Of a stretch of 11,990 bases of DNA, positions 11,091-11,990 are shown in pieces. This DNA comes from a virus (lineage: Duplodnaviria > Heunggongvirae > Uroviricota > Caudoviricetes): positions 1 through 11,990 of the IMG/VR virus record IMGVR_UViG_2744054628_000002. The stretch is one strand, 5' to 3'. Position 1 is the first letter of the stretch. Each line of letters begins with the position of its first letter. The notes under the pieces were generated by a model that was not told where the DNA came from, searched no databases, and was given only the letters and a program-made list of their open reading frames with translations. Made by a program: the position numbers and the translations under genes.

Positions 11091-11990
11091 ATGAGTGTGG
11101 CGACATTACGTGAACTGATTATTAAAATCTCGGCAAATTCCCGGTCATTCCAGTCAGAGATCTCCCGGGCTTCGCGTATGGGGCAGGATTACTACCGTAC
11201 CATGCAGAACGGAGGCCGGCAGTCCGCTGCTGCATCCCGTGAAATGCGGCGTGCACTGGCAGAAGTGACGGATCAGATAAATACAGCTAAATCTTCGGCA
11301 CTGAACATGGCGGGGGCATTTGCCGGGGCTTTTGCTACCGGTCATCTTATTTCTCTCGCCGATGAGTGGAATTCAGTAAATGCCCGTCTGAAGCAGGCCT
11401 CACAGTCCAGTGATGATTTTCAGTCATCACAGCGTGAATTAATGGCGATCAGCCAGAGAACGGGGACGGCTTTTTCTGATAACGCCAGCCTTTTTGCCCG
11501 CTCTGCAGCTTCCATGCGGGAGTATGGTTACAGTTCTGAGGAGGTACTGAAAGTCACCGAGGCGATCTCCACGGGCCTGAAATTATCCGGTGCCAGTACA
11601 GCAGAAGCCAGTTCGGTGATCACGCAGTTCAGTCAGGCTCTGGCGCAGGGAGTGCTGCGCGGTGAAGAGTTTAACTCGGTGAATGAGAACGGCGATCGTG
11701 TTATTCGTGCTCTGGCTGCGGGAATGGGAGTTGCCCGTAAGGATCTGAAGGCCATGGCGGATAACGGAAAGTTGACCGCCGATAAGGTTGTTCCTGCACT
11801 GATTAGTCAGCTTGGGGCATTACGTGATGAATATCTTGGTACGGCACTGTACTGGATAGCCGCCAGTATCAATATCAAACCGGGCCATGATTATTATTTT
11901 TACGTTCGCAGTGTGAACACCGTTGGCAAATCGGCATTCGTGGAGGCTGTCGGTCAGCCGAGTGATGACGCATCAGGCTATCTGGATTTT
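11091..11990 (+). CDS. tail tape measure protein N-terminal domain (partial; open to window end), with the last ~50 codons resembling J-type tail fiber sequence
   Basis: ATG 11091 (or in-frame GTG 11097, better spaced from GGAG 11086-11089). Product has the pattern I associate with tape-measure N-terminal domains ([13 protein letters not shown]...[22 protein letters not shown]). Frame stays open to 11990; final residues [29 protein letters not shown] resemble lambda J as recalled. Confidence 0.75.

Follow-up and report, generated by a model that had tools for sequence, protein, structure and literature searches.

An in-frame chimera of tape-measure and J gene fragments, very probably a neutral deletion remnant, in a defective lambdoid prophage of Escherichia coli

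A tape-measure fragment joined to the C-terminal third of J

The window analyzed here, a stretch of 11,990 nucleotides from a Caudoviricetes virus record (IMGVR_UViG_2744054628_000002, positions 1 to 11,990), ends in a single plus-strand frame of 300 codons (11091-11990) that is free of stop codons up to the window end (Table 1). When these 900 bases were searched by megablast against 5,426 complete E. coli genomes and GenBank phages, the query split in two: bases 1-744 matched genes annotated as tail tape measure protein with up to 100% identity, and bases 742-900 matched genes annotated as host specificity or tip attachment protein J with up to 99.4% identity. A sequence-only reading, whose translation of this frame was reproduced exactly, had described its first ~250 codons as resembling a tape measure and the last ~50 as resembling J, and both descriptions were borne out at the protein level. 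Residues 3-248 were identical to residues 1-246 of an intact 1075-aa tape measure at 245 of 246 positions (E 1e-168), the sole mismatch being the GTG start codon read as V, and residues 248-300 were identical to positions 765-817 of an intact 1159-aa prophage J at all 53 positions (E 2e-34) and to the same positions of lambda J at 49 of 53 (92% aa identity; E 1e-31). Tested against both proteins, the C-terminal segment aligned to J alone, with no significant match of residues 248-300 to the intact tape measure. A continuation of the tape measure was also looked for, and mapping onto the intact prophage revealed no such sequence after 11834 within the window.

At the nucleotide level, window positions 11097-11834 were 100% identical to the tape-measure gene of the E. 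coli PigCaeca_2 prophage (L002 20007-20744), and the related, induced phages phi467, Evi, and vB_EcoS-689R5 had 98.4-98.7% identity to this part. The J arm was 96.9% identical to the PigCaeca_2 J in nucleotides and 100% in amino acids, and 99.4% identical in nucleotides to the J genes of phages ev243, Kati, and others. Lambda H, with which the sequence-only reading had proposed to compare the N-terminal part, was rejected as its parent, with a best BLASTP E-value of 0.061 over 64 residues; this part is instead a TMP_3 (PF20155) tape measure of an HK97-like lambdoid prophage, with a Pfam score of 172 bits against a cut-off of 41. The TMP_3 domain is cut short because the junction truncates the profile match at position 166 of 192. 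From the ~1075 aa of the tape measure in intact relatives, which include a C-terminal tail-tip region, only residues 1-246 are present, and the window's tape-measure part is, judged by its sequence, a fragment and not a functional member of the family. On the J side, homology starts at residue 765, no Pfam hit to the hub domains (the tail-tip cone, ~residues 1-600) was obtained, and the two complete FNIII/Ig-like domains of J are not present, FNIII-1 being missing and Ig_J_second partial. Hence, the earlier attribution to J stood, but its description as a C-terminal segment understated the piece, which is the C-terminal third of J from residue 765 in the middle of FNIII-2.

The GGAG ribosome-binding site upstream of the frame lies 7 nt from GTG 11097 and 1 nt from ATG 11091. 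Given this 7-nt spacer, PGAP's choice of the corresponding GTG in the intact prophage, and the MATLRELII with which homologues begin, GTG 11097 is the likely start codon; the frame read earlier from ATG 11091 was correct, but a start at that ATG is less likely. The strong hairpin that precedes these signals (AACCGC-TTCG-GCGGTT followed by T8) is native rather than made by a deletion, because the intact prophage has it with 100% identity, and as part of the late operon it is presumably read through by Q-modified polymerase. The tape-measure fragment is located directly downstream of the G and T chaperone genes, as tape measures typically are, and these two genes (window 10377-11050), with an A8 slippery run near the end of G, are 100% identical to L002 19287-19960. 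The listed ORF of 144 aa (10314-10748) exists only as an artefact of the join at deletion junction 1; G itself starts at 10377. In some relatives, a small Zn-ribbon gene lies between T and the tape measure (L005 9614-9955), which is absent from the window; in P0002, the gene call merges it with the tape-measure N-terminus.

Table 1. Features of the window, their counterparts in the intact PigCaeca_2 prophage (L002 coordinates), Pfam domains of the 648-aa chimera as reconstructed by extension with AF44 sequence, and chimeras found elsewhere
Feature	Position	Strand	Remarks
Two adjacent ORFs, 370 and 333 aa	399-1511, 1527-2528	+	"hypothetical" in AF44
tRNA with anticodon CAT (one); tRNA region	6146-6221 and 6363-6408		
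iraM (anti-adaptor)	6788-7123	-	intact
bor/iss (serum-survival lipoprotein)	9536-9877	-	intact
Deletion junction 1	10350-10352	+	TAC, 3-nt microhomology; 8,221 bp missing versus intact prophage
G, tail assembly chaperone	10377-10748	+	Pfam Phage_TAC_1, E 8e-57
T, tail assembly chaperone	10760-11050	+	Pfam Phage_tail_T, E 4e-19
Terminator-like hairpin	11059-11080	+	between gene T and tape-measure start
GGAG ribosome-binding site	11086-11089	+	read from sequence
Tape-measure gene, 5' fragment	11097-11834	+	codons 1-246 from GTG 11097 (248 from ATG 11091)
Deletion junction 2	11832-11834	+	TAT, 3-nt microhomology; tape-measure codon 246/J codon 765, in frame
Gene J codons 765-817	11832-11990	+	second half of FNIII-2/Ig_J_second; frame open at window end
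Tape measure, intact	L002 20007-23234		1075 aa, WP_001612883.1
J, intact	L002 25621-29100		1159 aa, WP_096933770.1
Counterpart of window 10350-11834	L002 19260-20744		identity 100%
Counterpart of window 11832-11990	L002 27913-28071		identity 96.9%
TMP_3	residues 85-249		profile 2-166 of 192
Ig_J_second	residues 247-301		profile 50-104 of 105
Phage_Tail_Tip	residues 355-483		profile 1-138 of 139; E 1e-30
Ig_GpJ_C	residues 512-647		profile 1-134 of 135; E 1e-25
P0093 (501 aa, Logan assembly)	tape measure 115 to J 773		in frame; 2-nt microhomology
P0006 (Logan assembly)	tape measure ~287 to J ~338		in frame

Elsewhere in the window, the two adjacent ORFs at 399-2528 sit between the replication genes and hokD (at ~3146-3301 by collinearity with AF44), where PigCaeca_2 has IS5 and a different gene. 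Their Pfam hits (HEPN/RES N-terminal domain 1; GNAT) all stayed below threshold, PADLOC found nothing on them, and the ORFs could be accessory or defence cargo. The CAT tRNA was called Met by ARAGORN, and its equivalent in AF44 was called tRNA-Ile by PGAP, i.e., lysidine-type; next to it, the window has only a truncated form of the tRNA-Arg seen in the intact relative, with ~566 bp of the reference replaced by 44 bp. The host-benefit "moron" genes bor/iss and iraM survive in this decayed prophage.

Deletion junctions relative to PigCaeca_2 and AF44

At ompW, adjoining yciE and the trp operon, the chromosome of E. coli PigCaeca_2 (NZ_CP038857) contains a prophage that appears to be intact. It represents the parental type, with the same upstream G and T genes, lysis cassette, Q, RusA, DUF968, and chromosomal site, and E. 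coli AF44 shares with it the accession numbers of the Q, RusA, and DUF968 proteins. The intact element has a full set of head genes, which are HK97-type, and separate tape-measure and J genes of 1075 and 1159 codons, which flank M, L, K, and I. Compared to it, the window lacks 7.17 kb and 8.22 kb at two places.

The 7.17-kb gap, the one within the chimera, was placed by comparing the window base by base with both arms of the intact reference. The left arm stops at tape-measure nt 738 (codon 246) and the right arm starts at J nt 2293 (the first base of codon 765), and because the tape-measure and J BLAST pieces overlap by the 3 bases at 11832-11834, the junction lies there, inside the interval of 11800-11870 that had been predicted. 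The 7,171 bp of reference missing at this point comprise tape-measure codons 247-1075, M, L, K, I, and J codons 1-764; the in-frame loss of most of the tape measure, L, K, I, and the 5' part of J had been proposed correctly, but that gene list was incomplete, since M is also gone. Given the published domain layout of lambda gpJ, in which FNIII-2 starts at residue 713 (PMC11101478), and the Ig_J_second match, the J breakpoint at residue 765 falls inside FNIII-2. Together with a tape-measure breakpoint inside TMP_3, this is the pattern expected from random breakage and not from domain shuffling at module boundaries.

Other deletions in the element had also been suspected, and the 8.2-kb gap with its junction at 10350-10352 is one. 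On the head side, it took the HNH endonuclease, the small and large terminase subunits, portal, protease, and capsid, as well as the connector and closure proteins, the tail completion protein, and all of the major tail gene except its last 13 nt. Thus, compared to its intact relative, the element keeps Q, RusA, the lysis cassette, bor/iss, G, and T, and is without terminase, portal, protease, capsid, connectors, major tail, M, L, K, and I, and without an intact tape measure or J. On this gene content, it is a defective (cryptic) lambdoid prophage, with a recognisable backbone and missing virion genes.

The same junction was found in E. coli AF44 (NZ_OZ547155), identical over 854 nt (window 11137-11990, 100%), and the window matched AF44 at 99.86% over positions 1-10011. 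The differences between them are one isolated SNP and a 13-SNP patch at 9231-9389, and their small number indicates one shallow lineage. These 13 of the 14 differences fall within 160 bp of the Rz/lysis gene, and the patch looks like a short recombination (gene conversion) tract from another lambdoid prophage. In AF44, PGAP annotates the locus as a pseudogene (AC9VQ9_RS06215, "phage tail tip domain-containing protein, incomplete"), so that the RefSeq label presents only an N-terminally incomplete tail-tip protein and does not recognise a chimera with a tape-measure half. A third deletion, with the junction ATT, has removed window positions 10012-11136 from AF44, taking G, T, the first 15 codons of the chimera, and its ribosome-binding site. 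While the window's chimera keeps its start along with G and T, that of AF44 has none, and this loss of start codon and ribosome-binding site suggests that there was no pressure to keep the chimera. The right end of the AF44 element continues into lom, stf (a truncated side-tail-fibre gene), truncated ompW, yciE, and trp.

Extended with AF44 sequence, the chimera would be 648 aa long from ATG 11091 or 646 aa from GTG 11097, and the window's ORF would be expected to end where that of AF44 does. The Phage_Tail_Tip and Ig_GpJ_C domains lie beyond the window end and were seen in AF44; for the window's own genome, they are predicted from this extension.

The three junctions in this lineage (TAT, TAC, and ATT) each have exactly 3 nt of microhomology. 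With a chance of ~0.05 of at least 3 nt at one random junction, and of ~1.3e-4 for all three, these microhomologies fit RecA-independent illegitimate recombination as the probable mechanism.

Prophage decay and alternative origins of the chimera

Our results indicate that the chimera is very probably in effect a pseudogene, the neutral remnant of a ~7.17-kb microhomology deletion in a defective E. coli prophage. A single deletion within the prophage, which in related genomes sits at ompW beside the trp operon, would have joined by illegitimate recombination at TAT codon 246 of a 1075-codon TMP_3-type tape measure to J codon 765, and the collinearity of the window with the PigCaeca_2 prophage on both sides of the gap supports this origin. 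Such an event would account for the absence of the last 77% of the tape measure, of M, L, K, and I, and of two thirds of J on its 5' side, including the hub domains, FNIII-1, and half of FNIII-2, and the in-frame join would be a matter of luck, with a 1-in-3 chance. The predicted product would consist of the tape-measure N-terminus, half an FNIII domain, and the alpha-helical shaft, central straight fibre, and receptor-binding domain (RBD) of J. Given that the second microhomology deletion left the element without head and tail-shaft genes, it cannot be expected to build a tail, and the chimera would be without assembly partners. The chimera is most likely a recent and selectively neutral by-product of prophage decay, apparently without function.

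The junction is also rare. It occurred in one of the 5,426 complete E. coli genomes (AF44), which was the sole record to match across the boundary when GenBank phages were searched as well, and a composite DNA probe that would rank any adjacent arrangement of a tape-measure 5' part and J first among complete genomes retrieved AF44 alone. The exact 42-nt junction GGGGCATTACGTGATGAATATCTTGGTACGGCACTGTACTGG had no match in metagenome contigs or among genomes sampled at one per species, and no entry in a collection of 5.8 billion protein clusters covered both halves of the 300-aa chimera at high identity.

Counter to a neutral remnant, the chimera frame has neither stop codons nor extra mutations, and because the frame, native ribosome-binding site, start, and late genes (Q, lysis cassette, G, and T) are kept, the ORF could be expressed on induction. 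The chimera might then be functional and selected, either by displaying the J fibre and RBD at the membrane or in the cytoplasm, or by keeping translation running into lom and stf. We consider this very unlikely, even with native translation signals on an intact ORF, complete shaft, fibre, and RBD modules in the AF44 extension, and a comparable lambda fragment, gpJ713, that folds and binds LamB (PMC11101478). The protein cluster search did reveal other, independent chimeras of this kind, so that three in-frame ones are at hand (P0093, P0006, and the window's), but they have three different architectures, and an in-frame bias among protein hits is expected because a protein search finds only in-frame joins and is blind to out-of-frame ones; the single DNA-level analogue examined, K-12 ynaA-lom, is out of frame. 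A selected function is further contradicted by the restriction of the chimera to one of 5,426 complete genomes and to none of the other collections searched, by the loss of start codon and ribosome-binding site in its nearest relative, AF44, and by breakpoints that both lie within domains and not at their boundaries. As the chimera is identical to its parents, it carries no signal of selection in either direction. It would be a long shot that a Q-dependent late transcript yields a J trimer that binds envelope receptors, is tethered by the hydrophobic tape-measure N-terminus, and benefits the host, or that in-frame joins are retained for lom and stf expression; if true, the benefit could be, for example, interference with related phages.

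Recombination between two prophages in one chromosome, with the tape measure coming from one and J from the other, could likewise have made the join. The two arms do differ in their similarity to PigCaeca_2 (100% for the tape measure versus 96.9% for J, which is 99.4% identical to the J of other phages), the J-lom-stf region of AF44 is 93-95% identical to PigCaeca_2, and window positions 11091-11990 have matches at a median of 2 and a maximum of 10 places per E. coli genome. However, mosaic tail-fibre modules are common among otherwise near-identical lambdoid prophages, the left and right flanks and the chromosomal site (ompW, yciE, and trp) follow the order of one prophage in both AF44 and PigCaeca_2, any chromosomal sequence between two prophages would have been deleted or inverted, and the join is at 3 nt of microhomology and not at homology, all of which makes this origin highly improbable. 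An assembly or sequencing artefact in a chimeric contig is the least credible explanation, to be set aside almost entirely: the window stops 156 bases past the junction and so does not by itself display the downstream region, but AF44, an independently assembled complete chromosome, has the same junction followed by the J 3' end, lom, and stf, and the arms share only 3 nt, which leaves no repeat for an assembler to collapse.

We conclude that the chimera represents no novel type of protein but what prophage decay ordinarily leaves behind, and that it has no bearing on open questions of tail assembly or host recognition. For annotation, the label "chimeric tape-measure/J pseudogene" in a defective prophage suits the ORF better than either "tape measure" or "tail-tip protein". 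With two microhomology deletions in the window and a third in AF44, all nested, the lineage provides a clean, small example of stepwise decay, and the exact junction could be used as a lineage marker.

Comparison with related deletions and known proteins

In our survey of the literature on ynaA/tmpR and on tape-measure deletions in defective prophages, such chimeras were not described. P0093 and P0006 come from the same phage family and likewise have a TMP_3 N-terminus in frame with a later part of J, with breakpoints that differ from those of the window. The P0093 prophage has complete head and tail-shaft genes, unlike the element studied here. The protein cluster search also returned tape measures with large in-frame internal deletions, in which residues 1-222 are joined to 776-1075 (P0021) or residues 1-184 to 837-1074 (P0083); these keep both termini and, if functional, would be expected to produce much shorter tails.

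The J half of the chimera resembles gpJ713, a soluble, laboratory-made C-terminal fragment of lambda gpJ from residue 713 that binds the receptor (PDB 8XCJ/8XCK; PMC11101478). Both have the shaft, central straight fibre, and RBD, and the AF44-extended chimera aligns to gpJ713 at E 4e-121, with solved lambda gpJ structures in the PDB aligning to its residues 246-319 and 349-647. While gpJ713 begins at a domain boundary, includes the whole of FNIII-2, and has no tape-measure sequence, the J part of the chimera begins at 765, and its RBD sequence has diverged from that of gpJ713.

A further parallel is the cryptic prophage Rac of E. coli K-12, where ynaA (b1368, tmpR), a 5' tape-measure fragment, directly abuts the distal tail-region gene lomR, and where, as in the window, a deletion took the remainder of the tape measure together with tail-tip genes. 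The ynaA/lomR pair is located at L004 9262-9602, and the current ynaA product name does not convey its deletion-made nonsense 3' end. The two cases differ in that the ynaA tape measure is related to lambda H, and in that its deletion passes J and enters lom (~codon 80) out of frame, so that ynaA ends in a short nonsense tail. Taken together, P0093, P0006, and Rac ynaA suggest that deletions from the tape measure to the tail-tip genes are a recurrent form of lambdoid prophage decay.
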